Below the pieces are notes generated by a model that had not been told where the DNA came from, did no database searches, and was given only the letters and a program-made list of their open reading frames with translations. Below, one piece after another: positions 2,687-63,352 of a DNA stretch of 64,000 nucleotides; within the stretch, counting starts at the first letter, position 1; every line of letters starts with the position of its first letter. The position numbers and the translations under genes are program-made. The DNA is from a virus (Duplodnaviria > Caudoviricetes), in the IMG/VR virus record IMGVR_UViG_3300032330_001742, positions 1-64,000 of that record; one strand, written 5' to 3'.

Positions 2687-3219
2687 TGGCTATTTATCAT
2701 CCACCAACTTTTATTAATGCATATATAAAAGATAATACTAACGAGTTTAACTCTGGTACAGGTGTTCCATTTTTCCCAACTAGTCCAACATCAATAGATG
2801 ATTTAACAGAAACTTTTCCATTAATTCAAGGAACAGATGGTGCAGTATTTGCAGTGTATGACAGAATGCTTAGGATGAGAAGAACGCCATTTCCTCATAT
2901 AAAATCAGAAGAACTTATGTATTATTTTTATGGAACAAGCGCTAATTCTGTTGTTAATGTCATTAATGTAACTCAAAAAATTCAAGACCTATTAGACTAT
3001 GAGGATGAGTCTGCACAAGATCTTAATGATTGGATTAGGGACAAACAGTCATCAGATAATCCACTTAGAGATGAAAATGGTGAAATTTTACCATCAGTAT
3101 TTTTTCATAGACTCAGAGCCTTTCAGTTACAAGAAACAAGAGATATTATTAATTTTGGTACAGCCAGAACATATGCAGGTAATAAAATAATCATTGATTA
3201 TGACTGGCATAAATCTTAA
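2686..3219 (+). CDS. Putative tail terminator protein
   Basis: Directly upstream of the major tail gene. Confidence 0.45.
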   Translation: MAIYHPPTFINAYIKDNTNEFNSGTGVPFFPTSPTSIDDLTETFPLIQGTDGAVFAVYDRMLRMRRTPFPHIKSEELMYYFYGTSANSVVNVINVTQKIQDLLDYEDESAQDLNDWIRDKQSSDNPLRDENGEILPSVFFHRLRAFQLQETRDIINFGTARTYAGNKIIIDYDWHKS

Positions 3220-3285
3220 TAAACACTGTTATAATTAGTCTTGAGGAAACAAACGCCTTTATTCTATGAAAAAGAGGTGGAAAAA

Positions 3286-3900
3286 ATGGCAAGAGGTACT
3301 AGCAGTAATATCATCGTGGGAGCAGCACAACTGTTCACATATGAAGCAGGCCAACTCTCAGCAGGAGATCTTCCAGCATTCGTGTCAGGTACAGCATATG
3401 TAACTACACTTGGTGCTGATACAGACTTCCGTAACGTCGGATACACATCCAATGGTTTGGAAATTCAGTTCCAGCCAGACTTCGCTGAAGTAGCGGTAGA
3501 CCAAGTACTTGATGCTGCAAAACTGTTTAAGCAGGGAATGAAGGTCAACATGAAGACCACATTCGCAGAATCAACACTTGAAAATCTTTTGTTTGCACTA
3601 GCAGGCAAGGACTCAGACCTAGCAACAGTATCAGGAAATCCTACACTCAACATGTCAGCAGGCGAAATTGGCGAATGTCCAGTTGAGCGTGGTCTTGTTG
3701 CAGTTGGTCCAGGAACTGGTGACTGTGCAGAAGGTTCAAACTTGGAAAGAATTTATGCAGCATACCGTGCACTATCAATCGATAGCGTTTCAGTAGCAGC
3801 AAAGAGAGATGCAGCGACAATGTTCGACGTATCTTTCCGTCTTCTTCCAAACGACGATGGTTCATACGGTAAGATCGTAGATCGTACAGTAACACCATAA
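3286..3900 (+). CDS. Major tail (tube) protein
   Basis: ATG 3286 after GAGGTGG SD; NIIVGAAQLF and VGYTSNGLEIQFQP motifs typical of actinophage tail tubes; own promoter and terminator. Confidence 0.8.
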   Translation: MARGTSSNIIVGAAQLFTYEAGQLSAGDLPAFVSGTAYVTTLGADTDFRNVGYTSNGLEIQFQPDFAEVAVDQVLDAAKLFKQGMKVNMKTTFAESTLENLLFALAGKDSDLATVSGNPTLNMSAGEIGECPVERGLVAVGPGTGDCAEGSNLERIYAAYRALSIDSVSVAAKRDAATMFDVSFRLLPNDDGSYGKIVDRTVTP

Positions 3901-3916
3901 TACAACTTAATATATA

Positions 3917-3951
3917 AGAAGCCCAACCCTTCGGGGTTGGGTTTTCTTTTT
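3917..3951 (+). terminator. Intrinsic terminator with cUUCGg loop
   Basis: AGAAGCCCAACCC-TTCG-GGGTTGGGTTTTCT followed by a T run. Confidence 0.9.
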
Positions 3952-3959
3952 GGTATACT
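3951..3959 (+). promoter_or_regulatory. Extended -10 promoter, leaderless type
   Basis: TGGTATACT ends 6 nt before ATG 3966; no SD. Confidence 0.7.
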
Positions 3960-3965
3960 TGTTTG

Positions 3966-4643
3966 ATGGCAACTAAAGTATATGAAGAATATCCAGTAAC
4001 ATTATTTGACGGCACAGAAATTTTTGTGTCGCCATTAAAGATCAAATACTTAGATCAACTTATGGAAGCATTTAATGCTGTTCATAAAGCAGACGATGAT
4101 TTTGAAGCAATAGCAATTATGGTTGAGTGTACACGTATTGCAATGAAACAATTTTATCCAGAAATATCACAAACAGTAGAACAGATAGAAGATAACTTTG
4201 ATTTGCCAACTATTTATAAAATTTTAGATTATGCTGCTGGAATTAAAATAAATGAAGCAAACAGTGAGCCAGTAAAAGATCAAGCAGAAGAGTCTGGGCA
4301 GACGTGGGCTGATCTTGATCTAGTAAAGTTAGAGACAGAGGTTTTTCTTTTAGGGGCATGGAAGAATTATGAAGAGTTAGAAACCTCTATGTGTATGCCA
4401 GAATTACTTCAAACAATATCTATGAAAAGAGAATTGGATCATATAGAGAAAAAATTCTTGGCAGCCATGCAAGGTGTAGATTTAGACAAGGGCAAGGAAG
4501 ACGATAAATGGCAAGAAATGAAAAACAGGATTTTGTATAAAGGCAAAAGCGAAGATGATATTACAACACTTACTGGGCAAAGAGCAAATAATGCAGGATT
4601 TGGTATTGGTCTAGGTCTTGATTATGAAACAATAAATGATTAA
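3966..4643 (+). CDS. Tail assembly chaperone, long (GT-like) form
   Basis: Between tail tube and tape measure genes; first ~100 aa align by eye with the whole of 4695..5015. Confidence 0.7.
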   Translation: MATKVYEEYPVTLFDGTEIFVSPLKIKYLDQLMEAFNAVHKADDDFEAIAIMVECTRIAMKQFYPEISQTVEQIEDNFDLPTIYKILDYAAGIKINEANSEPVKDQAEESGQTWADLDLVKLETEVFLLGAWKNYEELETSMCMPELLQTISMKRELDHIEKKFLAAMQGVDLDKGKEDDKWQEMKNRILYKGKSEDDITTLTGQRANNAGFGIGLGLDYETIND

Positions 4644-4658
4644 AAATAAGCGTTCTTT

Positions 4659-4690
4659 GTGCTATAATTAACATAACCTTTAAAGGAGGA
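4659..4690 (+). promoter_or_regulatory. Extended -10 promoter plus strong SD
   Basis: TGCTATAAT at 4659 and AAAGGAGGA before ATG 4695. Confidence 0.7.
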
Positions 4691-4694
4691 ATAA

Positions 4695-5015
4695 ATGGCA
4701 ACAACTGTTCATGAAGAAAAGACAGTTACTCTGATAGATGGTACAAAGGTACCAGTCAGACCACTAAAGATATCTCTCCTTCGTCCTTTTATGAAAAAGT
4801 TCGAAGGCGTACAAGCAGTCGCAGAAGATAATGAAAAGTCAATGAACATTCTTATGGAATGTATTCAAATAGCAATGAAGCAATACAAGCCAGAACTTGC
4901 AGAAGATTTGGCAGCATTGGAAGATAATATGGATCTTCCAACTGTGTATAAGATTATTGAGGAAGCATCTGGAGTTAACCTTGCAGATACAGCAGTACTC
5001 AATGCTCTACCATAA
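4695..5015 (+). CDS. Tail assembly chaperone, short (G-like) form
   Basis: Immediately before the tape measure gene; paralogue of the 3966 N-terminus. Confidence 0.7.
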   Translation: MATTVHEEKTVTLIDGTKVPVRPLKISLLRPFMKKFEGVQAVAEDNEKSMNILMECIQIAMKQYKPELAEDLAALEDNMDLPTVYKIIEEASGVNLADTAVLNALP

Positions 5016-5040
5016 ATAAAAACTAAAGAGGTATACATGA

Positions 5041-8000
5041 ATGGCTGATGTCCAGTCAAATATAGTCGTTAATATCGACACTACTGCAGCGCTTGCAGAA
5101 CTAAAAGCATTGCAACGTCAGATATCAGCCTTTCATACCTCGATGGCAAAAACAGGTGCAGCAGGCACTGCAGTTTCTGCCAATATGCAACAAAATCTTT
5201 TAAACTCAATTAATGGTAGTGGCAAATTCTATGCTGAGATGACTCGCATAAAAACTACAACTGAAGCATTTAATACAGCACTTGCAAAAAATCAATTTTC
5301 AATGAAAGAATACTTCCGCTATGCGGGAGCAGCAACTACAACTTTTGGAAAACTTTTTAAACAAGAGCATGAAACAATAAATAAAGTTGCAAGAGAAAAT
5401 GTAAAAACTTTACAGACTCAATATATTAAGATGGGTCGAGATGCAAACGGCGCCCTAAGAGGAATTTCTGTAAGACCTCTAGCGCTAGACATGAATAATC
5501 TTCAAACACAAACAGCAATGGCAGCACAAAAACAAGCATTGCTTAATCAACTTTTGCGTCAGGGGTCTACTAATCTTCTAAACTTTGGTAAGAATACCCA
5601 GTGGGCTGGTCGCCAGTTGATGGTTGGTTTTACTGTACCGCTTATGTATTTTGGTGCAATGGCTGGCAAAACATTTATGCAATTAGAAGAACAAGCAATT
5701 AGATTTAAACGTGTATATGGTGACATGTTCACAACAAGTTCTGATGCTACTAAGGCATTAAAAGATGTTCAACTACTTGCAAATGAATTTACTAAATACG
5801 GTGTTGCCGTAGCAGACACTATGAAGATGGCAGCAGACGTTGCAGCAACTGGTAAAACAGGTGCAGACCTTCTTGCACAAGTATCTAATGCAAACAGATT
5901 GGCAGTTCTTGGTGGTATTGATCAGCAAAAATCTTTAGATACTATCATTTCGCTAACCTCAACATTTGGAATTGCAGCAGGGGATTTAGCAGGAAATATT
6001 GACTTCTTAAATGCTGTAGAAAACCAAACCATCCTTAATATTGATGACCTAACAACTGCTATTCCTAAAGCAGCACCAGTAGTAAAACAACTTGGTGGTA
6101 ATGTTCAAGACCTAGCATTCTTTATGACAGCAATGCGTGAGGGTGGTATTGATGCAGCACAAGGCGCAAACGCAATTAAATCTGCTCTTGCATCTATGAT
6201 CAATCCAACTAAAGCAGCAAAAGATATGCTTGCTGGTTTTGGTATTGATGTAGTTGGATTGGTTAATGCTGATAAAGGAAATGTCAAGAAGATGGTTCTT
6301 GACCTTGCAAATGCACTAAATACTTTAGACCCACTTAATCGTGCACAGGCAATTGAAAAAATGTTTGGCAAGTTCCAATTTGCTCGTGTTTCAACATTAT
6401 TTCAAAATGTTATTCAAGAAGGAAGCCAAGCACAAACTGTACTCGGTTTGACTAAAGCAACAACAGAAGAACTTGCAATTTTATCTGAACGAGAATTAAA
6501 TAAAATTTCAGAATCTCCAATGTATAAGTTTAAAAAAGAAGTTCAAGATCTTAAGGTTGCAATTGCTCCAATAGGTGGAGAGTTTATTAAAGCACTTACT
6601 CCAGTTCTAAAATTCTTTGGTGGAATATTTGATAAGTTTAATAATCTTGGAGATGGAACTAAAAAGTTTATAGTATTGCTTACAACATTGTTAGCGGGTA
6701 TTGGACCATTAGTACTTATGTCTTTTGGTTTGCTTGCTAACGGTATTGCAAATATTATTAAGATGTTTGTTGGAATTAAATCATTATTTAATGGAGTTGG
6801 CAAATCTTCAGCAGGACTTGGAGAACAGACTAATTTCTTAACTCAACAGCAAATGGAAAATGCTGCATCTGCTGCTTCACTTGATCAAGCACATCAAAGA
6901 CTTCAACAAAGATTTACTGCAGAAGCAGAAGCAGTTGCTTTGCTTACAGCAGCATATCAAGAATCAGTAGTTGCACAAAGAGCATTTGGTATGGCACCAC
7001 TTCCAACTGGTATGGCAAAACGACCACCAATGAGAATGGCAACTGGAGGAATTATTGCTGGTCCAGGAACAGGTAAATCTGATTCAATTCCAGCAATGCT
7101 TTCAAATGGAGAAGCAGTTGTTCCAGCAGAAAATGTAAAGAAGTATCCAGCACTTACTGCAGGATTAGTTGCAGGAAATATTCCAGGTTTTGCTGAAGGG
7201 TATTCTCCAGGAGGAACACCACAATATAGACCTTCTATGGGTAATAATTTTGTTATGCAAAGTGTTATTGCACAAAATCAAGCACGTGCAGCAGCATTAG
7301 AAGCACAAGCAGCAAGTACAATTGTTAGAGCAGCAAAAACAGAGTTTGCTCATATTGGATCTAGAACTGCAATTCCAGCAGGTCAACTTGCTGCACAACT
7401 TAACCAAATGGAAGGTGCCGTTACTGCAAGAGCGCTTAGAATGATTAATGCACTTGCTGTAAAATTTGGAGATGCATTATCAGTTAATGTTTATGGAAAA
7501 CTTGGAATGGCAACTGGTCAAACATCAACTGGAAAGAGTATTAATGGTTTGCTTGGAAAACCAGGCGGAGTTGCTAAATCAGAATTTTTAACTGACTTTG
7601 ATAAACAAGGTGTCAATAGATGGAAAACATCTGTTAAGGCTGCTGGTCTTAAAATGGAAAATGTTACAGCAGATCTTACAGTTCTTGATGCTGGAATAAA
7701 AGAATACCTTACAGTTGTAAATAAAGATGTTGCTATTACAGATGCAACAGTAAAAGAAGCCTATGATTATTCAGTCAAAAAAATGGCAGCAGATAATAAA
7801 GTTGTTACTGCATTTAACCAATTAGCAGTTACAGCAGGAGAAGCAAGAGTAAATATTTCTCAATCCCTTGCAGCAAAGTTTGGTCTTCAAAGTCTTGCAA
7901 CTACTGGAAGCAAACCAGCATTTGCAGTAGGAAATGAAAAGGTAAGAAGTGGTGGAGACAGACTCCCATTTATGAAGAGTGCTGGATTTAACATTGTAGA

Positions 8001-11000
8001 GGTTGCAAAAAATGCAGTTGTAACTGGTGCTAAAGAAGCACTAAAGATTGCTTCACCATCAAAGGAAATGCGTGTTGTTGGTGAGCAGGCAGGAACTGGA
8101 CTAATCCTTGGTGCAAAAGAAACAACTGCAAATGCAGCAAATGTTGGAAAAGAAATTGGTATGGCTATGTCTTCTTCTGCTATGCCAACAGGATCACAAG
8201 CACGAAATAGAGTAGCGCTATATGGATCTGGCCCAGTTGACGCTGATGCAAAATCAATTCGTAGACAATTGGAAACAGTTGCAAAAAGACAACTAGCAGA
8301 GTCAAAGAAACAACTTGCTTTAGATGAAAAAATTTCACAATCAAAACAACAACTTTATGGAACAACTGGACAAATTACTCAAGACATGCGTACACAAAGA
8401 AGACTTGCTGAATCACAAGCAAAAGCACTTCGTGTTGCATCAGCACAAAGAATAGGTGCAGAAGAAGAATATGCAGCATCTACACGTAAGAATCGATTCC
8501 AAGAATGGATAGCATCAAAACGTAAAGTACAAGCAACAGAAGCATCTACAGGAACAATGACTGGAAAAATTGGTGGTGGCCTTATGGCTGCATCAATGGT
8601 TGCAATGATGGGTTCTATGATGGGTGGAAAAATTGGAGAAATTTCACAAAAACTTATGATGCCGTTAATGGCAATGTCAATGATAGTTCCAATGCTTGGA
8701 AGCAAATTTGGAATGCTTGGCGTTGGAGTTGCTGCATTAACTGCAGCAGTTGTAGCGAATAGAATGGCATTCGATCATGCACAAGACACTACAATGCAAT
8801 TTGCTGAAGCAGTAGGGTCTGGAGCAGCAGCAATGGATCTACTTTCAAAGGCTGCAGGTAAAGTTTCTGCAACAGATATTATGGATAGAAGAAGATCTAA
8901 TCAGTTTGCACCACTACAAGTTGCAATTGGAAAATCTACTTTTGGAGAAACATTTGTTCAATCAGATCGTGGTAAGGCTTTAATGAAATCAATTGGACAA
9001 GATATAAAAACAAAGGGTAGCGCTGGAGCAAAAGGTGATTTAACTTCACAACTTGCAACTGCAGTTACATCTAAATCAATGACACTTGCTCAAGCAAGAT
9101 CTGCTGCTGCAGATATGGGTAAGCAACTTGGAGATATGTCAATCGGTATTGATGTTAATGCAAACCTTGTTAAAATGTTTGGTCCTAATGGTGAAAACTT
9201 AGAGAAGCAACCATACCAACTTCGTGCAGACTTAATTACTAATTCAATAAAAAATGTAAATCAAGCATCTTCAAATAGCAAGAATGCACTTTCTGTTGGA
9301 AACAAAACTGCTGATTTTGGTAGAAATGTAGTTGGTACTGTTGGTGGAGAAGTATTGGGTATGGGTGCAGGAGCAGCAGTTAGCGCTGCAGCAGCAGCAG
9401 CAGCAGGTGCAGCAGCAGGTAGTGCAATTCCAGTACTTGGAACTGTTATTGGTGGACTAATTGGAGCAGGTGTTGGATTCTTTATTAGTGAAAGAGCAAA
9501 GAGCAAGCGAATTGGTATGGCCTCTGGTGCAAATGTTTCAGCGGATAAAACTGCAATGGAACAATCAGTTCAAATGCTTGACTCATTGGATCTTGAATAT
9601 CAATCACGTATTGATTCTGCTCATGCAGCAGGTGATTTGACTAAAGAACTTGAACTACAGCAAGAGTATGAAAGAAATAAAACTCTATTACTTGAAAAAC
9701 AAGGAACTTTGGGAAGAACTATTCTTAGTAACTTTAAATCTCAGAGTGGTGAAATGCAAGGTGCAATGCTTACTGGTGCATATAAAGCAGTTACAAGTAA
9801 GTATAAAGGAACAGCACAAGAAGATACAGCAGCACTTGCTGCAGATAAATTAAAGGGTTCTGGTTTTTCAAAAGAAAAGCAATATGTAATTTCCATGAAG
9901 TTGGCATCTGGTGAATTTAGCCCACAAACAATTAATAACCTATTTGAAAAGTTTGGAAATGATAGTGCAACATTTAATTCAGTGTTACAACTTTCATATA
10001 AGTTTGGTGGAAAATTTGCAGACCAAGCAATGTCATTAACATCAATGATGACTAAGGGAGAAGCAGCAAAGTTAATTGTTGATTTGCAAGCCAAAAACCC
10101 TAAAGAGGCTGAAAAATATCTTAACTTTATGGGTGGAATTTCTGGTTATGGAGTTATCAATGAGGTAAAAGTAGCATTTGATTTCTTGCAAAAAAATCCT
10201 AAAGAAGCACAAAGACTTATGGATTTCCAAGACCAAGTAACTAAGGTTAAAGGAAAGATGGATCTTAAGATTGCTGGAAGCATACAGGGTATGACACCAG
10301 AAGAAATGGATTTGTTAAAAAAGAATGCTGATTATTTTGCGGGACTTCCAGCAGAACAACAAAAAACATTCTTAACAGTATTGTCTACACAGATGACATT
10401 CCATGGAGATCCAGCATATATTAAACTATACAAGAATTGGCTATCTGAGGGTAACACAGGAACTATTGCAGACTTTGATATTTGGAATGCTAAACACGTT
10501 ACAGACGCATCTAAGGGTATAACAACTACGGCACTTGATTCACAAAATACTGGTCCAACACAAGGACCTACAGCCTCACCATTAGATGATTTAATTAAAA
10601 AAATTAGAGACTTAAGAAAAGATCAGCAGGCACTTACAGTAGGCTGGGATGCCTCTATGAAGGCCATGAATGCACTATTCACTAATGCTAAAGGTAAAGT
10701 TCAGAACCTTGTTCCAAAGAAAGGCCAAAGCCCATTTAATGGTTTATCTAATCAATTAAGATCAAAGGGTATGTCTGAAGGCGCAATTGATTTCTTGACT
10801 GGATTAAGTCCAGAAGATTATAAAAAGGTTGGACCAAAGTTTATTGCAATTGATAAAAAGACTGGTGAAGTTAGACTTAAAAATGCTCAACAGTTAAATG
10901 CTCTTATTAACAATATTGCAGTTGGAGAATTCCAAAATGCAAGTGAAAAAATGATTAAGAATCTTACTAATCAAGATGTTGCACTTAAAAAACTTATGGG

Positions 11001-12891
11001 CGCAGGAATGTCTCTTGATGATGCATATGCAGCAGTAGCAGATGAAGCATTTGCAGCAGCAATAGCAACTGGTAACTTTACATCTGCACAAGTAAAACAA
11101 ATGATTGCAACTAGAGCACAAGCAACACTTCTTGCACAACTTCAGGAAAGACTAAAGGCTGTTCGAAATTACTTTAATGATTTAACAAGTGGTTTACAAG
11201 ATCAAAAGACATTTTCTAATCTTGCTGGATACCTAAAGGAAAGCGGAATGGATGCGTCCATGATTGCTCAAATCCTTTCAGACCCAACACTTGCTAAGGG
11301 AATGGCTGATCAGTTAGCAGCAGGTTCACTAAGTGCAGAAAAAATTAAAGATTCAGTTGAAAAAATAAAGGCAACAGCACAAGAAAAAATTGTAACAGAT
11401 CTTAAAGCAGGAAACTATGCAGCAGCATTTCAGCCAGGTTATGACGCAGCACAAAAGATGTTTGACCTTCAGCAAAGAACTCTTGAACAAGCATATCGTC
11501 CAATAATTAAGGCTGATGAAGATAGAATTAAATCAGCACAGCAACTTGTTAAATTAAAACAAGGAGAACTTGATGCACAACAAAAACTTGTAGATGTTGC
11601 ACAAGCAGAAGTTGATGCAGCAAATAAACTTATAGATGCTGAAAATGAAAAGAATGACAAGTTAGCACATGATATTAAATTAATTGATCATGCTGCTGAA
11701 GCAATTAATGCTAGATATGATGCTCAAAAGAAAGCGCTTGAAGAAATTGCATCAGTTAATGATTATATTATTGCTCAACAAGGTAAGCAACTTGGATTAG
11801 CAGATGCACTTACACAGGGTGATATAGGAGCAGCAGCAAAAGCAGTTCAAGATATGAGGGCAGCATCTGCAAGCAACTCAATATCTTCACAACAAAAGGC
11901 TTTAGATAATGCACAACAAAATGAAATTGGAAATCTTAAAAATGATAAAGGACAAACAAAGGCTCAAATAGAAGCAGAGCAATATGCTATTTCTGAAAAG
12001 ATTTATGGAATTCAACAGGGGCAACTAAAAACTGCTCAGCAACATCTAGATGCTGCTAATGCAGTTATGGATACACTAAATCTTCAAATGAAGGCTTTAG
12101 AGTACAACGTAACCAAGGCACAAGAACAACTTGATGCAGATCAGGCAGACCTTGCTGCAAAGATTGAAGCACTAACAGTTATGGGTCAAACTAAAACTCA
12201 ATGGGAAGACATGAAACTTGCTGTTGAAAAAGCACAGATGGCACAAGATGAATTGGCTGCTACACAATTGGCTGGAGCATTGGCTACAGCAAAAATTGTA
12301 GATAGTGTTTGGGCTGGTATTAAATCAAACTATGACTCTTATAAAGATAAGACTGTAACAATCACAACAATAATGCAAACAATTATATCTGGCGCAACCG
12401 CACCTACAGCATCAGGAACTATGACAACTGAGCAACAAAATGTTGCAACACAGGGAATTAGCGCAATTCAAACACTAGTTAAAAGTGGTCAAATTGATGC
12501 AGCAGAAGCAGCAACCACACAGTTAATGGCTGCAGTTAAGCCACCTACAGCAAAAGATATTGTTGCAATTAGAAAAGCAGCATTGGGTTATTTAAGTTCT
12601 GGAGGACTTGTTCCAAAATATTTTGCTGCAGGAGGATACGCTAAGGGTATTGATACAGTTCCAGCAATGCTTGCTCCAGGAGAATTTGTAATGAGTAAGT
12701 ATGCTGTTGATCAACATGGTGTTGGAACTCTTAGCGCAATGAATGATGGAAAAGAAGTTGGCAATTCAGTGTATACTTATAACCTAAGTGTTAATGTTAA
12801 ATCTGATGCAAATCCAAATGAGATTGCTCAAGTGGTTATGACACAAATTAAACAGATTGATGCTCAAAAAATTAGAGGGGTGCGTAAATAA
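5041..12891 (+). CDS. Tape measure protein (TP901-like core), 2616 aa
   Basis: Very long Ala-rich helical protein with hydrophobic segments and DSIPAMLSNGE / DTVPAMLAPGE motifs. Confidence 0.92.
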   Translation: MADVQSNIVVNIDTTAALAELKALQRQISAFHTSMAKTGAAGTAVSANMQQNLLNSINGSGKFYAEMTRIKTTTEAFNTALAKNQFSMKEYFRYAGAATTTFGKLFKQEHETINKVARENVKTLQTQYIKMGRDANGALRGISVRPLALDMNNLQTQTAMAAQKQALLNQLLRQGSTNLLNFGKNTQWAGRQLMVGFTVPLMYFGAMAGKTFMQLEEQAIRFKRVYGDMFTTSSDATKALKDVQLLANEFTKYGVAVADTMKMAADVAATGKTGADLLAQVSNANRLAVLGGIDQQKSLDTIISLTSTFGIAAGDLAGNIDFLNAVENQTILNIDDLTTAIPKAAPVVKQLGGNVQDLAFFMTAMREGGIDAAQGANAIKSALASMINPTKAAKDMLAGFGIDVVGLVNADKGNVKKMVLDLANALNTLDPLNRAQAIEKMFGKFQFARVSTLFQNVIQEGSQAQTVLGLTKATTEELAILSERELNKISESPMYKFKKEVQDLKVAIAPIGGEFIKALTPVLKFFGGIFDKFNNLGDGTKKFIVLLTTLLAGIGPLVLMSFGLLANGIANIIKMFVGIKSLFNGVGKSSAGLGEQTNFLTQQQMENAASAASLDQAHQRLQQRFTAEAEAVALLTAAYQESVVAQRAFGMAPLPTGMAKRPPMRMATGGIIAGPGTGKSDSIPAMLSNGEAVVPAENVKKYPALTAGLVAGNIPGFAEGYSPGGTPQYRPSMGNNFVMQSVIAQNQARAAALEAQAASTIVRAAKTEFAHIGSRTAIPAGQLAAQLNQMEGAVTARALRMINALAVKFGDALSVNVYGKLGMATGQTSTGKSINGLLGKPGGVAKSEFLTDFDKQGVNRWKTSVKAAGLKMENVTADLTVLDAGIKEYLTVVNKDVAITDATVKEAYDYSVKKMAADNKVVTAFNQLAVTAGEARVNISQSLAAKFGLQSLATTGSKPAFAVGNEKVRSGGDRLPFMKSAGFNIVEVAKNAVVTGAKEALKIASPSKEMRVVGEQAGTGLILGAKETTANAANVGKEIGMAMSSSAMPTGSQARNRVALYGSGPVDADAKSIRRQLETVAKRQLAESKKQLALDEKISQSKQQLYGTTGQITQDMRTQRRLAESQAKALRVASAQRIGAEEEYAASTRKNRFQEWIASKRKVQATEASTGTMTGKIGGGLMAASMVAMMGSMMGGKIGEISQKLMMPLMAMSMIVPMLGSKFGMLGVGVAALTAAVVANRMAFDHAQDTTMQFAEAVGSGAAAMDLLSKAAGKVSATDIMDRRRSNQFAPLQVAIGKSTFGETFVQSDRGKALMKSIGQDIKTKGSAGAKGDLTSQLATAVTSKSMTLAQARSAAADMGKQLGDMSIGIDVNANLVKMFGPNGENLEKQPYQLRADLITNSIKNVNQASSNSKNALSVGNKTADFGRNVVGTVGGEVLGMGAGAAVSAAAAAAAGAAAGSAIPVLGTVIGGLIGAGVGFFISERAKSKRIGMASGANVSADKTAMEQSVQMLDSLDLEYQSRIDSAHAAGDLTKELELQQEYERNKTLLLEKQGTLGRTILSNFKSQSGEMQGAMLTGAYKAVTSKYKGTAQEDTAALAADKLKGSGFSKEKQYVISMKLASGEFSPQTINNLFEKFGNDSATFNSVLQLSYKFGGKFADQAMSLTSMMTKGEAAKLIVDLQAKNPKEAEKYLNFMGGISGYGVINEVKVAFDFLQKNPKEAQRLMDFQDQVTKVKGKMDLKIAGSIQGMTPEEMDLLKKNADYFAGLPAEQQKTFLTVLSTQMTFHGDPAYIKLYKNWLSEGNTGTIADFDIWNAKHVTDASKGITTTALDSQNTGPTQGPTASPLDDLIKKIRDLRKDQQALTVGWDASMKAMNALFTNAKGKVQNLVPKKGQSPFNGLSNQLRSKGMSEGAIDFLTGLSPEDYKKVGPKFIAIDKKTGEVRLKNAQQLNALINNIAVGEFQNASEKMIKNLTNQDVALKKLMGAGMSLDDAYAAVADEAFAAAIATGNFTSAQVKQMIATRAQATLLAQLQERLKAVRNYFNDLTSGLQDQKTFSNLAGYLKESGMDASMIAQILSDPTLAKGMADQLAAGSLSAEKIKDSVEKIKATAQEKIVTDLKAGNYAAAFQPGYDAAQKMFDLQQRTLEQAYRPIIKADEDRIKSAQQLVKLKQGELDAQQKLVDVAQAEVDAANKLIDAENEKNDKLAHDIKLIDHAAEAINARYDAQKKALEEIASVNDYIIAQQGKQLGLADALTQGDIGAAAKAVQDMRAASASNSISSQQKALDNAQQNEIGNLKNDKGQTKAQIEAEQYAISEKIYGIQQGQLKTAQQHLDAANAVMDTLNLQMKALEYNVTKAQEQLDADQADLAAKIEALTVMGQTKTQWEDMKLAVEKAQMAQDELAATQLAGALATAKIVDSVWAGIKSNYDSYKDKTVTITTIMQTIISGATAPTASGTMTTEQQNVATQGISAIQTLVKSGQIDAAEAATTQLMAAVKPPTAKDIVAIRKAALGYLSSGGLVPKYFAAGGYAKGIDTVPAMLAPGEFVMSKYAVDQHGVGTLSAMNDGKEVGNSVYTYNLSVNVKSDANPNEIAQVVMTQIKQIDAQKIRGVRK

Positions 12892-19823: not shown

Positions 19824-19838
19824 TGGTATAATATAATT

Positions 19839-20282
19839 ATGGCAAAAGTACCTCTACCAGAACGTGGGCAACCATTAGATGTTTCATATATTTATACACT
19901 TGCAAATGCACTAAATGATCTGTCTACACAAGTTTCACCAGCAACCTATAAATATGTTACTGTTGATACTGCGGGAGTAGGAAAGCAAAGCGTAAAGGCT
20001 TCTGAAGCACGTATTATTGGTGGATACGTTGATGTTGTCTCTAGTTCAACTAAAAGTGCTGGAAATGAAGTTGCATTTAGTTATGATTTTCCAACAGATT
20101 TCAAGTATGCCCCTATTGCAACAGCCACACCAATTAATACAGGTGGAACAGATGCAGGTAAAAATGTTTCAGTAGTTCTAAAAACAATTACAACATCAAA
20201 GGTAGAAGGAATAGTAAGATTTAATTCAACTGGTGACTTATCAGTTGCAGTAAATATTATTGTTATTGGTATACCAAATTAA
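19839..20282 (+). CDS. Putative minor tail/fibre protein
   Basis: F..DFKYAP..ATP pattern like gp53/H-lectin tail domains; leaderless promoter 19824-19832. Confidence 0.45.
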   Translation: MAKVPLPERGQPLDVSYIYTLANALNDLSTQVSPATYKYVTVDTAGVGKQSVKASEARIIGGYVDVVSSSTKSAGNEVAFSYDFPTDFKYAPIATATPINTGGTDAGKNVSVVLKTITTSKVEGIVRFNSTGDLSVAVNIIVIGIPN

Positions 20283-29349: not shown

Positions 29350-29623
29350 AAGCAAGCGCATTGGCGCTAAGCAGCATAAAAATTCTGGTAGAAATACACA
29401 CAAAGGCGATGCTACATGGAAAAACTTTACAGTAGACTTCAAAGAGTGTGGCAAATCTTTTGCATTAAATAAAGACGTATGGGCCAAAGCAGTTACTGAT
29501 GCAATTAAAAACGGAAATGATCCAATGATACTTCTTGTATTGGGCGATGGAAATTCTAAAGTCAGGTTAGCAATAACCGAGTTTGAAATTTTAGAACAGG
29601 TATTAGAAGATGGTATAATATAA
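29333..29623 (+). CDS. Hjc-like Holliday junction resolvase (PD-(D/E)XK)
   Basis: SGR..KGDA..VDFKE. Confidence 0.7.
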   Translation: MSEKNESKRIGAKQHKNSGRNTHKGDATWKNFTVDFKECGKSFALNKDVWAKAVTDAIKNGNDPMILLVLGDGNSKVRLAITEFEILEQVLEDGII

Positions 29624-29625
29624 TT

Positions 29626-30306
29626 ATGGAACAAGGAATAAAAGGCGCTGCCTACGATAAATATCAAGAGTTTAAGAAAAATCAAGGAGTAAAAATCTCA
29701 AACGAAGATTTTGAAACAAAAATTGTTTCTAATATTTTTGATGAAGATGACATCAAAGTCCTGTATGAAGCAGTAAATTCAACCCCAAAAGAAAATATAA
29801 AGGTTATGGAGTGGGGTGGACTACTTGCTTGGCATTGCCAACTACCCTCACAGATAGTAGATAAAATCAACATTGCAGTAAAAAGAGATCTTGGAGATCA
29901 TTTAATTTTGCGTAGAGATTATTCTTTTGCAAGATATACACAGCACACTGGATGGAAAAATAAATTGCATCCTCATTCAGATACTAGACCATCACAAAGA
30001 GTAACATTTGATATACAAATAAAAGCAGACGAAGAATGGGGTATTATTGTTGAAGATAAAACCTATCACCTTCAAGATGGTCAAGCACTTGTTTTTGCTG
30101 GAACCCAGCAGACACATTGGAGAGAAAAGAAAGACATTAAAAAAGATAGTGTTATAGATATGATCTTTTGTCATTTAGAATATGTAGATGATCTACCACA
30201 TGATGAAGATCAAGATCAGATTTTAGCGCCAAGACATCGATTCCTTTGTGAATTCTATGATTTACATGGTAATGATGTTCCTTATGATTTAATAGAAATG
30301 GAATAA
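29626..30306 (+). CDS. 2OG-Fe(II) oxygenase-like protein (array copy 1)
   Basis: LHPHSD...ALVFAGTQQTHWRE; leaderless promoter 29611. Confidence 0.7.
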   Translation: MEQGIKGAAYDKYQEFKKNQGVKISNEDFETKIVSNIFDEDDIKVLYEAVNSTPKENIKVMEWGGLLAWHCQLPSQIVDKINIAVKRDLGDHLILRRDYSFARYTQHTGWKNKLHPHSDTRPSQRVTFDIQIKADEEWGIIVEDKTYHLQDGQALVFAGTQQTHWREKKDIKKDSVIDMIFCHLEYVDDLPHDEDQDQILAPRHRFLCEFYDLHGNDVPYDLIEME

Positions 30307-48119: not shown

Positions 48120-48441
48120 AGATGATTTTATAGAAGCCTTGATTTTAAATGGTGCCTTAGAGGTAACTGCAATAGATATAGATTCTGGAGAACCACTGTA
48201 TAAGTTTACAGATAAACTAAGAGAGTTTTCTCCAGAATTATATGAAACCCAGCAGTCAATGTTTCATGAAGAACTCATGTCACTTTGGGAAGATGGTTTC
48301 CTTGATCTAGATCCAATGGAAAAAAATCCAATGGTAAAACTAACCTTTAAAGCATTTAGTGCTGTTGAAATTGACAAACTAGATGATTCAAAAAAGTCAA
48401 TGCTTAAAGAAATAATTAGAATAATGTTAACAGAACACTGA
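48100..48441 (+). CDS. Hypothetical protein
   Basis: Acidic ORF overlapping thioredoxin. Confidence 0.55.
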   Translation: MEINLTEDDFIEALILNGALEVTAIDIDSGEPLYKFTDKLREFSPELYETQQSMFHEELMSLWEDGFLDLDPMEKNPMVKLTFKAFSAVEIDKLDDSKKSMLKEIIRIMLTEH

Positions 48442-48453
48442 TATACTTACAGT

Positions 48454-48882
48454 ATGAGTGCTTTTGAAAACTATTTACTGGGCTTTTTTTCAACAATTTT
48501 TATTTTTTTCTGTGTTGCAAAACTATCTGCCAAGATGTTTGTAATTGAAAAGGTTAAGAGTCCATACAGGTATAGTCAAAAAAATATACACTATTTAGTT
48601 AGTCCATATATTGGGGTTATGCCAAACAAACCAAAAAATACTCAATCTTTAAAGCATTTTAATAAAACTAATTTAAAGGTAATTATTGTAGATGGTGAGG
48701 CATTTTGGGTAAAGGATAATACACTTTATACAGCCAAGGTAAATCATGAGGGTGTTGATAAAGATACCACATCTGTAGTTGACACAATGAGTATGGATAA
48801 GGTACAATTAGATAAGATGTTGTTCATTATAGATCAACTAAGAGATGGGAATAGTAATGATAGTAGGGGTCCAAGGTACTAG
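48454..48882 (+). CDS. Hypothetical membrane-anchored protein
   Basis: N-terminal TM; leaderless promoter 48439. Confidence 0.6.
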   Translation: MSAFENYLLGFFSTIFIFFCVAKLSAKMFVIEKVKSPYRYSQKNIHYLVSPYIGVMPNKPKNTQSLKHFNKTNLKVIIVDGEAFWVKDNTLYTAKVNHEGVDKDTTSVVDTMSMDKVQLDKMLFIIDQLRDGNSNDSRGPRY

Positions 48883-49433: not shown

Positions 49434-49724
49434 ATGAAGAAGCATGAGTGGAAAGATGATGCTCTATGCTTAGAATATGATACTAATCTATTTTTTGATA
49501 AATATGAGGAAGATGAACTTCTAAGACCAGCAATAGATAAACTATGTTCTAACTGTCCAATTAGTAAAAATTGTTTTGCTGTTGGTATAACTGGAAAAGA
49601 GTGGGGAGTATGGGGTGGTGTTTATCTAGAAGGTGGAGAAATATCTAGAGAATTCAATAAGCATAAAGATAAAGCAACATGGGGAGATACATGGAAGTAC
49701 TTAACAATGGAGTCAGATAACTAA
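49434..49724 (+). CDS. whiB: WhiB-family transcription factor
   Basis: W...ALC, LFF, CxxCP....C, GVWGG. Confidence 0.92.
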   Translation: MKKHEWKDDALCLEYDTNLFFDKYEEDELLRPAIDKLCSNCPISKNCFAVGITGKEWGVWGGVYLEGGEISREFNKHKDKATWGDTWKYLTMESDN

Positions 49725-51590: not shown

Positions 51591-51619
51591 AATTATACCA
51601 TAGGTGTTTCTGGTATACT
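51591..51619. promoter_or_regulatory. Back-to-back divergent extended -10 promoters
   Basis: AATTATACCA (minus-strand TGGTATAAT) and TGGTATACT (plus). Confidence 0.65.
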
Positions 51620-51625
51620 TTCTAG

Positions 51626-52333
51626 ATGCCTGGTTTTTTTATATCAACGCCACCTAGATGTGGAACTCACCTTATTGTAGATTCTGTTGCATTTGCAACA
51701 CAGTCTCACTCAATGAGATTTACTAAGTATGATGATGATTTTTGGAATCATCCGACGGTAAAGAATAGATCTAATGCAGTAATTGGAATTCATGCACATA
51801 ATGATAACGATAGGTTATTTAAATATGCTAAATCAAATAAGATAATTACAACAGAGAGACACCCCATTGGCCAAGCGTTATCTATTTTGTTTATGCATAA
51901 TAGAGGATTTTCTCCTGACTGGCCAGATAACAAGATGTTTGATTCTGAACTATTTAAGACTATGATGCCAAACTCAGAGCAGTTTCTATCTTATATTGGC
52001 AGTAGGCAGTTTGCTAGTTACAGAGAGATCACATCAGATTGGTCTAAGCATGGAGAGTGCTTCAGTTTTGATAAACTGGTATCAGGTAATACAGGTGAAT
52101 TAGACAGGCTTAGCGATTATGTTGGATCCAAGGTTGTCTTAAAGGATATTGAAAAGAGTAAAAAGAAGTACAACGATGGTATAGTATTTCTTGGAGATCC
52201 TAACTTATGGAAGACCATTGTGTCTCAAGAGATAGCATCAGAGGTTGCAAAGATATTTCCAGAGTACGATATGGAAACCTACAATCCATCACCTGTAGAT
52301 GGTGATTGGCTTTTTAAACAACTTCTGGTATAA
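51626..52333 (+). CDS. Sulfotransferase-family protein
   Basis: STPPRCGTH 5'-PSB loop; RHP....S 3'-PB motif. Confidence 0.65.
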   Translation: MPGFFISTPPRCGTHLIVDSVAFATQSHSMRFTKYDDDFWNHPTVKNRSNAVIGIHAHNDNDRLFKYAKSNKIITTERHPIGQALSILFMHNRGFSPDWPDNKMFDSELFKTMMPNSEQFLSYIGSRQFASYREITSDWSKHGECFSFDKLVSGNTGELDRLSDYVGSKVVLKDIEKSKKKYNDGIVFLGDPNLWKTIVSQEIASEVAKIFPEYDMETYNPSPVDGDWLFKQLLV

Positions 52334-53634: not shown

Positions 53635-53655
53635 ATACTATGGTATAATTTTTAC

Positions 53656-54105
53656 ATGGAGTCACTACTAAACATGCTTAAAGTTTTGCTTGCAGATAAC
53701 ATTACCCTTAAACTTAAAGCCCATGGCTATCACTGGAATGTTGAAGGAGATGATTTTCTTCAGTATCATGAACTTTTTGAAAACATTTATACAGATTATG
53801 ATGGTGCAACAGATACTTATGCTGAATGGCTTCGCAAGTTAGATACATATGCACCATTTAAACTTTCTCGCTTTATTGAACTTAATGAAGTTGGAGAACC
53901 AGATGTAACTTCAGATCCAATGATGATGGCAGCAGATTTACTTATGGCTAATGATATGGTTCTTTCTAAACTTATGGATGCTTTTGATATGGCAACAGCA
54001 CAACGCCAACAAGCACTTGCAAACTTTTTTGCAGAAAGAATGGATATGCATCAAAGATGGCATTGGATGCTTTCGGTATCACTAAAAGAAGTAGGTATGG
54101 ATTAA
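53656..54105 (+). CDS. dps: Dps ferritin-like protein
   Basis: HGYHWNVEG..F..YHELFE, AE, WML. Confidence 0.9.
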   Translation: MESLLNMLKVLLADNITLKLKAHGYHWNVEGDDFLQYHELFENIYTDYDGATDTYAEWLRKLDTYAPFKLSRFIELNEVGEPDVTSDPMMMAADLLMANDMVLSKLMDAFDMATAQRQQALANFFAERMDMHQRWHWMLSVSLKEVGMD

Positions 54106-59376: not shown

Positions 59377-59956
59377 GAGGGTAATCCTTTGCTTTCCATT
59401 TATTTATTCCAGGATGAAATTCTGGATCTACATGCTGTGGCAAAGATGTATGCATGTACAGTCCAGTATATCTATTACCCCTTGTAACCGTAGTTATACC
59501 ATGAATGTGTTCTGTTCCAGAACTTGGAAAAAATACTGCAGAATATTGTTTTGGTTTATATTCAAATCCCTGATTTGGAAAATAAATTATTCCACCATCA
59601 TAATCTTTTTCATTATTAAGATACATTACTGTACTAAACTCAATCCAAGGCTCTGGTCCTTGTGCATCAATATGAAGGTCACCTTTTGTTCCAGTTGCCC
59701 AATGAGATCCAAACCCTTTAAAAACATATATATCATTTTTAAAGCCGTACAGTTCTTTATGCATAAGATTTGCTTTATGACCATACTTAATCATAATATC
59801 CATAACCGTTTTGTTATAAGGAAGAGATGTTCCTCCATATCGTTTGCTGTAGTATTCTGGGTACGGATTGACCTCAGATGGATTAGTCTGTTCAGCAATC
59901 AGTGTTGCTGCATCTTCTGGTGAGATAAAGTTTTCTACTATATGTATTCTATGCAT
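59363..59956 (-). CDS. 2OG-Fe(II) oxygenase
   Basis: HID, YLN..YDGG, HIHG...RY. Confidence 0.88.
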   Translation of the reverse strand: MHRIHIVENFISPEDAATLIAEQTNPSEVNPYPEYYSKRYGGTSLPYNKTVMDIMIKYGHKANLMHKELYGFKNDIYVFKGFGSHWATGTKGDLHIDAQGPEPWIEFSTVMYLNNEKDYDGGIIYFPNQGFEYKPKQYSAVFFPSSGTEHIHGITTVTRGNRYTGLYMHTSLPQHVDPEFHPGINKWKAKDYPLARI

Positions 59957-59977
59957 AACTCTATTATAGCACTAGCC

Positions 59978-60887: not shown

Positions 60888-61655
60888 TTACCTTTCGAGT
60901 GTATTGTTTAGTCGTGCTTCTTCATAAAAATCAAAACGGCACCAATTAGAAAGTGTATACCTTATACCTTTTGTAATAGGAGTAACGCCATGCACATAGT
61001 AAAGGCTTCCTGGAAACATCACTATTGATCCTCGTTCTGGTTTAAAGTGATAGTCAAAGTCTGGAAAGTATAACTCTCCGCCTTCAAAGTCGTCATTTAT
61101 ATATGCAAGTATTGCTAAATCACCACTCCACATGTTAGGCCAAGTCTTCAATTGTTCTTCTTGGCTTGGTCCCTCATCATGATCTGGATCATTATTTACA
61201 TAATGAATATCTAATATGTCTGTATGTGGTGCTAAATATGTATTCTCTGGATGAACCATCATCATACATTTTTGATCTGTAAGATTAGATAGTTTTTCAT
61301 TCCATTCTTTTGCTGCAAAATCAATCATTCTTTTGCTCATCTTTTGCATAAACTTTTCATACTCAAAAGTTACTTTTGGCTTGTCATGGAATCCACGTGC
61401 CAATGTGAGTGGATAGCAGTGAGTGCGTTCAGACATAACCTCGTACTCTTTTACAATTTCCATAAACTCTTGAATTTCATCTTCAGTAAGGAAGTTTTTA
61501 ATATATACAATGTTGTCAATACCCGTTCCATATTTTTCTGTAAATACATCTGCAACCTTTTTATCTTGTTGCCCTTCAAAAAAATAAGGTCTTGGCGTAT
61601 CAATACTTTTAAAAAGTTCATCTAGAACTGGTGTTTGAAATGGATAATTGCTCAT
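60888..61655 (-). CDS. 2OG-Fe(II) oxygenase
   Basis: HTD, YINDDFEGGEL, HGV..GIRY. Confidence 0.88.
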   Translation of the reverse strand: MSNYPFQTPVLDELFKSIDTPRPYFFEGQQDKKVADVFTEKYGTGIDNIVYIKNFLTEDEIQEFMEIVKEYEVMSERTHCYPLTLARGFHDKPKVTFEYEKFMQKMSKRMIDFAAKEWNEKLSNLTDQKCMMMVHPENTYLAPHTDILDIHYVNNDPDHDEGPSQEEQLKTWPNMWSGDLAILAYINDDFEGGELYFPDFDYHFKPERGSIVMFPGSLYYVHGVTPITKGIRYTLSNWCRFDFYEEARLNNTLER

Positions 61656-61674
61656 AAAACAATTATACCATTAG

Positions 61675-62765: not shown

Positions 62766-62800
62766 TACTTTAGTATAGCATCACCTGCTATAATTGTAAA

Positions 62801-63352
62801 GTGCAACCATACATCATTAAAAATTTTATTAGCAATGAAGATGCTAATTTAATAATAGAGTTTATTGAAAAAAATGATAAACAGGATAGTGATAAAATTA
62901 AAAGAAGACTTATTCGTTTTGGAATAGATAATTTTAATGGTACAACAGGAACAGTTGATGAGGCAGGCCAAATTGGCCAGTTGGTAAAGTCACACGCTCT
63001 AAATGTTATTAATCTAATTAAAGATAAGCATGAAGATTCTTCAGAAATTTATCTATCTACACTGTGGCTATCAAAACAAATACCAGGGTCCAATGTTTTG
63101 GCTCACAGAGATACAGATGGTGGTATGAGCATGCACTATAAATATAGCGGAATTATATATTTAAATACACAAGAAAATGGTGGAGAAATATCTTTTCCTA
63201 AACTTGGTATTGATTATAAACCAGAGGGTTGTGATCTAGTTTTCTTTAATTGCAGAGATAGAAGGTCTGTGCATAAAGTTAAAGAAACAACTCAAAATAG
63301 ATATGCAATCCCAATGTGGTTTACTGATGATCCAAAATTTGCAATGGCTTAA
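62801..63352 (+). CDS. 2OG-Fe(II) oxygenase
   Basis: HRD, YLN...GGE, H.V...RY; leaderless GTG start. Confidence 0.85.
   Translation: MQPYIIKNFISNEDANLIIEFIEKNDKQDSDKIKRRLIRFGIDNFNGTTGTVDEAGQIGQLVKSHALNVINLIKDKHEDSSEIYLSTLWLSKQIPGSNVLAHRDTDGGMSMHYKYSGIIYLNTQENGGEISFPKLGIDYKPEGCDLVFFNCRDRRSVHKVKETTQNRYAIPMWFTDDPKFAMA

Follow-up and report, generated by a model that had tools for sequence, protein, structure and literature searches.

The window analysed here is the first 64 kb (64,000 nucleotides, nt) of a 116,064-bp IMG/VR virus record (IMGVR_UViG_3300032330_001742, rated complete by CheckV) from an uncultured phage whose clade is a large group of freshwater phages. The subject of this report is its tail assembly chaperone locus, made up of a long gene (3966-4643, + strand, 225 amino acids, aa) and a short gene (4695-5015, + strand, 106 aa) situated between the major tail (tube) protein gene and the tape measure protein gene. 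The frameshift that yields the chaperones G and GT is among the most conserved recoding events in tailed phages, and the reason for keeping it is debated (a fixed ratio, coupling of the products, or genome economy). We propose, with a probability of roughly 80%, that this lineage has replaced the conserved -1 programmed frameshift of its tail chaperone locus by two genes, the long one equal to a G-T frameshift product encoded in one frame (G'-T) and the short one encoding a free-standing G-type tail assembly chaperone (G).

Two paralogous genes and their frameshifting relatives

The original prediction held that the first ~100 residues of the long protein match the whole of the short one, and this was borne out: BLASTP aligned long residues 1-95 with short residues 1-96 at 47% identity and 72% positives (E = 2e-30), a similarity far above chance. 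Compared with the short protein, the long one carries ~120 extra C-terminal residues in the same frame, and it consists of a G-like domain (residues 1-~100; 3966-4265), a linker, and a T-like domain (residues ~119-225; 4320-4640). In PHROGs, the long protein matched phrog_10504 at residues 1-101 and phrog_10474 at residues 132-192, and the short protein matched phrog_10504 alone, over its full length. Both families are labelled "unknown function", and no Pfam model scored above its cut-off for either protein.

Homology to frameshift-type relatives supports the earlier claim that G and GT exist here as separate paralogous genes instead of a frameshift pair. A tblastn search of the long protein against 50,697 phage records returned 130 matches (127 Streptomyces and 3 Rhodococcus phages; E down to 1e-27), and among the 40 records listed the long protein matched in two pieces over genes annotated as tail assembly chaperone. 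Karp, TunaTartare and other Streptomyces phages of the Stanwilliamsviridae are true homologues, with 33-44% identity in G and 36-50% in T (the range for T being joint with that of a freshwater locus, L100, described below). In Karp and TunaTartare the two matching pieces lie in frames differing by -1, with C_CCA_AAT at the G/T junction, within the motif KLNDPN, and the TunaTartare annotation includes the joined frameshift product. The long protein is collinear with this joined product across the slip site (window GIKINEAN...SGQTWADLDLVKLETEVFLLGAWKNYEELE against Streptomyces phage GVKLNDPN|SSSDGSGGTWKELDLASLEAEAFLLGHWKNFEEIE), and the short protein ends in a stretch resembling the zero-frame G tail; therefore, the long and short genes are homologues of the frameshift product and of G, respectively, with the long gene in a single frame throughout.

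A closer group of relatives was found in freshwater metagenomes. It was reached via a representative protein adjoining the short-protein clade, which led to a locus (L100) whose tube protein is 52% identical to that of the window. In L100 the order is tube gene, terminator, TGTTATAAT, AGGAGG and a single G gene, whose 111-aa product is 58% identical to the short protein of the window and 44% identical to the long N-domain. The heptamer C_CCA_AAC lies in frame, T follows in the -1 frame with 50% identity to the long C-domain, and the T stop overlaps the tape measure start codon. A scan with the L100 G protein gave 148 relatives, of which 80 were taken, and all of the 77 sister-group loci with enough sequence (77/77) had a single G, an in-frame C_CCA_AAC, and T in the -1 frame. 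The heptamer is invariant in this sister group (L100-L180) although the adjoining codons vary synonymously. The order of tube gene, chaperone gene or genes, and tape measure gene is common to the Streptomyces phages, the sister group and the window. The first two carry one G gene, with the slip site C_CCA_AAY and a -1 frame T, where the window carries a fused gene and a second G. A GC difference hinting at separate hosts was not found between frameshift-type loci (0.371) and two-gene loci (0.363).

As a separate observation on the sister group, a strongly conserved stretch (GCACTAGCGGCGGCTCTAG...) follows C_CCA_AAC at L100:2758-2812 and at the same place in L101-L180. A hairpin predicted ~8 nt past the heptamer in L100 (-18.6 kcal/mol) might be a frameshift stimulator, or a mere effect of coding in two frames.

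The two-gene layout is itself widespread. At least 596 long-protein matches were confirmed in IMG/VR, and the survey of gene order covered the best 80 of these loci (L003-L082) together with 14 relatives of a protein representative, P0021. The order tube, long, short and tape measure was found in all 75 of the best 80 loci that extend past the long gene (75/75), and in 13 of the 14 P0021 relatives, the fourteenth being cut. The total is 88 independent contigs from many metagenomes, with frames intact at 45-60% identity. When relatives are surveyed for single frameshifted versus duplicated loci, the sister group is of the frameshift type in every case and the two-gene type is present in these 88 contigs. 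Moreover, a search of 1.84 billion protein representatives gave 344 hits, and among the best 150, which were inspected, only 9 had both domains (56 were G-only and 85 were T-only open reading frames, ORFs); the fused form is therefore a derived minority. In G-domain trees each group forms one clade (support 93 for long N-domains, 99 for short proteins, 84 for frameshift-type G and 95 for the Streptomyces-type outgroup), and therefore the two-gene layout arose once.

P0021 itself, a "G-only" protein inside the long-gene clade, was considered as an intermediate and rejected: its relatives all have a fused long gene and a short gene, and it is likely a fragment (1 of 10 such proteins followed). 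One two-gene locus, L007, has a gap of 654 nt between the tube and long genes (L007:3346-4001), against 61-88 nt elsewhere, so that something has been inserted there.

Expression signals and a proposed mode of action

The two genes differ in the signals that precede them, and three features of the original prediction, namely separate promoters, a Shine-Dalgarno (SD) sequence for the short gene and a leaderless layout for the long one, are conserved across relatives. Ahead of the long gene lies an intrinsic-terminator-like hairpin (3918-3945, + strand; 12-pair stem with 6 G-C pairs and a 4-nt loop, also returned by a terminator scan) with a T-run extending to 3950. A hairpin and T-run occupy this place in 42 of 42 distinct relatives; the stem sequences vary, and the fold energy of the intergenic region ranges from -19 to -32 kcal/mol. 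The extended -10 box TGGTATACT follows directly (3951-3959, + strand) and is separated by 6 nt from the long-gene ATG at 3966, an arrangement that we read as a putative leaderless promoter. Among distinct upstream sequences from relatives, 38 of 39 have TGnTAnnnT 5-14 nt ahead of the long-gene start (5-9 nt in 37), and the long gene is without an SD both in the window and in 38 of 39 distinct relatives. Judged by the spacing between the -10 box and the ATG, the long gene looks leaderless.

The short gene has an extended -10 box of its own, TGCTATAAT (4660-4668, + strand), which a scan ranked as the top promoter-like site of 3000-5400 (10/12 with TG), and an SD, AAGGAGG (4683-4689, + strand), read from the sequence. 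In all 39 distinct relatives TGnTAnnnT (nearly always TGnTATAAT) is located 23-35 nt before the short-gene start and an SD-like motif is present (39/39 in each case). This layout of promoter, leader and SD matches that of the single G of the sister group in 40 of 40 cases, and direct checking of L100-L180 found promoter, leader and SD to be the same as in the window short gene; so the short gene kept the ancestral control region, and the long gene has a different one, of leaderless type. Neither a reading of the sequence nor a terminator scan revealed a terminator separating the long gene from the short one, and transcription from the first promoter should therefore extend over the short gene as well.

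Signals for a frameshift were looked for at the end of the short gene. In the window, no X_XXY_YYZ heptamer is present in the last 90 nt of the gene, as the original prediction had noted, and the same is true of 49 of 52 distinct loci; where CCCAAAY would be expected by homology, this ancestral heptamer is missing, and no conserved slippery heptamer is left. Both alternative frames are closed within 60 nt of the short-gene stop in the window, and they are closed in 73 of 73 loci. The gap to the tape measure gene measures 14-34 nt across loci, and the 25-nt gap of the window contains the tape measure SD AAGAGGT (5026-5032, + strand), with similar motifs kept in relatives.

From this arrangement we propose the following mode of action. 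The tube transcript would stop at the terminator, and the promoter placed 6 nt before the ATG would give rise to a leaderless G'-T message running on through G and the tape measure gene. The second promoter, with its leader and strong SD, would supply extra G message. Translation of the long gene would yield G'-T in one frame, as the counterpart of lambda gpGT, and translation of the short gene would yield G alone, so that additive transcription combined with SD-driven initiation would make G exceed G'-T. By analogy with lambda, the very long tape measure protein would be covered by many copies of G and few of G'-T, and the tube protein would be brought in by the T domain.

Points against and alternative explanations

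Several points weigh against this reading, in its chaperone assignment and in the ratio proposed for the two products, and they are set out here beside points in its favour. The phage is uncultured and its two-gene locus is described here from sequence, and the chaperone role of the Streptomyces homologues is an annotation derived from position and frameshift, not from experiment. The long protein, modelled with AlphaFold2 from 71 sequences (predicted local distance difference test, pLDDT, 82; predicted template modelling score, pTM, 0.71), has two short strands and four helices at residues 1-91, and then helices to ~190. When this model was compared with 48,161 chains by VIA-align, YqbN (3KLU) ranked first (Z 5.4, 85 residues, root-mean-square deviation, rmsd, 3.7) and the HK97 chaperone gp13 (2OB9) third (Z 4.3, 80 residues, rmsd 3.8), both with low Z values that may reflect chance; the two alignments span long residues 1-94. 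Since YqbN and the HK97 protein are both listed as tail assembly chaperones (PMC9603447), these fold matches to a predicted model are consistent with chaperone identity, without proving it. Foldseek returned nothing from the PDB at E <= 0.001, and a 71-sequence profile gave chance-level hits only against PDB sequences (E 0.4 or worse). In a library of viral models, GT-type proteins and named tail assembly chaperones were among the top matches, phage N15 GT included.

Regarding the ratio, the short gene resembles the tube gene in codon usage more closely than the long N-domain does at 46 of 50 distinct loci, and codon usage, conservation and the additive promoters together point indirectly to a short product in excess of the long one. 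In the window itself, the codon-usage gap is negligible (short 0.660 vs long N-domain 0.651), and the 50 loci of the paired test are related, so that their independence is overstated. Furthermore, the layout of TGnTAnnnT, 6 nt and ATG recurs at ~10 other genes of the window. Leaderless-type starts were located at 19824-19841, 29611-29628, 48439-48456, 51611-51628, 53641-53658 and 62786-62803, and on the - strand at 59954-59971 and 61653-61670. TGnTAnnnT-N6-RTG has 14 matches in the window vs 8.2 expected, the extended -10 box TGNTATAAT has 18 vs 6.7 expected (0 of 100 shuffles reached 18), and the 18-mer TGGTATAATATAATTATG is present twice. Leaderless transcription units thus seem, from these motif counts, to be a general feature of this phage.

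The host is probably an actinobacterium, because of a WhiB-family gene in the window and because of the metagenome-assembled genome (MAG) bins of relatives. The WhiB-family gene (49449-49622, + strand; PF02467, 41 bits, above cut-off) speaks for an actinobacterium as host, and a MAG scan with a single protein, which is weak host evidence, found four contigs, with two of three bins assigned to Actinomycetota (Acidimicrobiaceae and Nanopelagicales) and one to Flavobacterium. A 74-kb contig from a Lake Mendota Flavobacterium MAG (L181; JBIPOM010000254.1), which has a short-gene homologue at 92% identity, is probably a misbinned phage contig. Leaderless messages are common and reasonably well translated in Actinomycetota. 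With such starts common both in the phage and in its likely host, the long gene may not be weakly expressed.

The long and short proteins could alternatively be specialised partners made at comparable levels, with G' having diverged for a distinct job, such as binding one tape measure site, and with the promoters reflecting general operon structure. Such a division of labour would agree with the routine use of leaderless starts in this genome and with the window-wide enrichment of extended -10 boxes, and also with the protein comparisons: within one genome, the long N-domain and the short protein are just 26-45% identical (median 37%), and evolution is faster in the long N-domain than in either the short protein or the T domain. 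We nevertheless consider this alternative unlikely. Eight core residues (P23, K25, I26, F36, P66, D80, Y85 and G93 in short-protein numbering) are kept in at least 99% of both paralogues and suggest the same basic binding mode, and conservation (mean pairwise identity 0.70 for the short protein and 0.52 for the long N-domain, the short protein being higher in 93% of pairs) points, as codon usage does, to higher expression of the short gene. Both promoters can transcribe the short gene; in the one two-gene case published so far, the GT-like gene is likewise preceded by no ribosome-binding site. A related and speculative idea, to which we give similarly little credence, is that the G' domain, freed from the frameshift, has specialised and may recognise one defined site of the tape measure protein, e.g. 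the end where tube polymerisation starts. If this were true, tail initiation would be nucleated at a fixed position, as opposed to the rare GT of a frameshift being incorporated at random, and the frameshift and two-gene groups coexisting in the same lakes would constitute a natural experiment on frameshift conservation.

Another explanation concerns the origin of the long gene, which might have been acquired by recombination from a distant phage with fused G and T, the resident T part then being lost. We regard this history as possible and somewhat doubtful. It has on its side the unconstrained tree, which joins the short proteins with frameshift-type G (Shimodaira-Hasegawa-like approximate likelihood ratio test, SH-aLRT, 97) and leaves the long N-domains outside. 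However, a constrained tree that unites the long N-domains with the short proteins does equally well (log-likelihood 0.34 higher; approximately unbiased, AU, test p 0.53), the tree was made from 110 columns, and the long N-domain clade has long branches. Moreover, the nine two-domain proteins among the best 150 of the 344 hits resemble long-gene orthologues or their fragments (40-61% identity), with no separate fused donor lineage seen among them, and the nearest counterpart of the T domain is the sister-group T (50% identity). Thus, where it had been claimed that a duplication fixed GT and G separately, the separate genes stand, and duplication is not separable from acquisition of a diverged copy. 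Finally, it is scarcely conceivable that the layout is an assembly or gene-calling artefact, or that a cryptic frameshift is still active. The former would have to account for intact frames in 88 independent contigs from many metagenomes, and the latter would have to operate with no conserved heptamer, no open alternative frame past the short gene, and just 14-34 nt before the tape measure gene.

Neighbouring genes and comparison with known systems

The chaperone locus is flanked by recognisable tail genes. The tube protein gene (3283-3900, + strand) has its own TGTTATAAT at 3227-3235 and a GAGGTGG-type SD, and its product is 44-46% identical to the Karp major tail protein and to the TunaTartare "protein with Ig domain", which is encoded at the same position; in PHROGs it matched phrog_2175 (E 7e-32) and, weakly, phrog_885 ("major tail protein"). 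The G+C content of the tube gene (0.44-0.46) and of the gene at 210-653 (up to 0.47) is markedly above that of their neighbours (~0.33), for which the likely cause is the codon bias of highly expressed structural genes, and each of the two genes has its own upstream TGnTATAAT (at 3227-3235 and 181-189, respectively). On the other side, the tape measure protein gene (5041-12891, + strand) is an ORF of 2616 aa, a length that implies a very long tail. Residues 1-300 of its product share 27-41% identity with the proteins annotated as tape measure in Karp and TunaTartare, and the figure is 46-82% for the IMG/VR relatives inspected. In two relatives, L008 and L090, the tape measure match shifts frame, possibly through assembly errors. 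A megablast search with the first 12 kb of the window found no match among the 50,697 phage records.

On our reading, an abundant environmental clade has dropped the frameshift, and a sister clade in the same metagenomes keeps an invariant slip site, with homology across the junction making the states before and after unambiguous. Identity between G and the G part of GT would then be dispensable, and the chaperone system could be rebuilt with transcription and initiation signals. Pipelines that seek a frameshift will mislabel such genes.

Set beside the frameshifted chaperones that long-tailed phages conserve, lambda gpG/gpGT among them (Levin et al. 1993; Xu et al. 2004; as described in PMC5009743 and PMC2147016), the window has the same placement of the genes between the tube and tape measure genes, and likewise a short protein and a long protein that share an N-terminal domain, the long one with a helical C-terminal extension. 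Within this type, the HK97 chaperone gave a low-Z fold match to the modelled N-domain of the window, and phage N15 GT is among the viral-library matches. In contrast, a frameshift makes both G domains identical, whereas those of the window are 47% identical and are encoded with no slippery site and no overlapping frame. Unlike in the lambda type, the ratio in the window cannot depend on frameshift efficiency.

Chaperone pairs without a frameshift have been described elsewhere, and our literature search on tail assembly chaperone paralogues, absent frameshift or leaderless start found nothing for this phage group. In Microbacterium EA phages the pair is reported as two separately expressed ORFs with no evident frameshift, which, together with the window, gives chaperone pairs without an evident frameshift in actinophages; the source paper gives no evidence of a shared paralogous domain, and the likeness is by description only.

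The closest precedent is the Bacillus myovirus 0305phi8-36, in which gp143 and gp144 share a paralogous domain with no frameshift, and in which low-level production was proposed for the GT-like gene, which is without a recognisable ribosome-binding site (Hardies et al. 2007; PMC2147016). The two-gene concept, including low expression via a missing SD, was thus already published for that phage in 2007. The idea is not new; what the present locus adds is a clean and testable instance, widespread, abundant and unusually well documented, of a variant that is known but has rarely been described. In 0305phi8-36 as in the window, a pair of neighbouring genes close to the tape measure gene recapitulates G/GT without a frameshift through a common paralogous domain, and in both no recognisable ribosome-binding site precedes the GT-like gene, whose product is proposed to be made at a low level. 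In 0305phi8-36, gp143 carries the shared domain at its C-terminus and gp144 at its N-terminus, and the gene order begins with the G-like gene, whereas in the window the GT-like gene comes first and each gene has a separate promoter. The equivalence to G and GT was drawn from position and predicted helices in 0305phi8-36, and in the window it comes from direct homology to frameshifting relatives. No Bacillus phage was among the tblastn matches at E <= 1e-3 in the 50,697 phage records, a comparison by sequence search only. The frameshifting sister group suggests that the two-gene form of the freshwater phages originated independently of that in 0305phi8-36.

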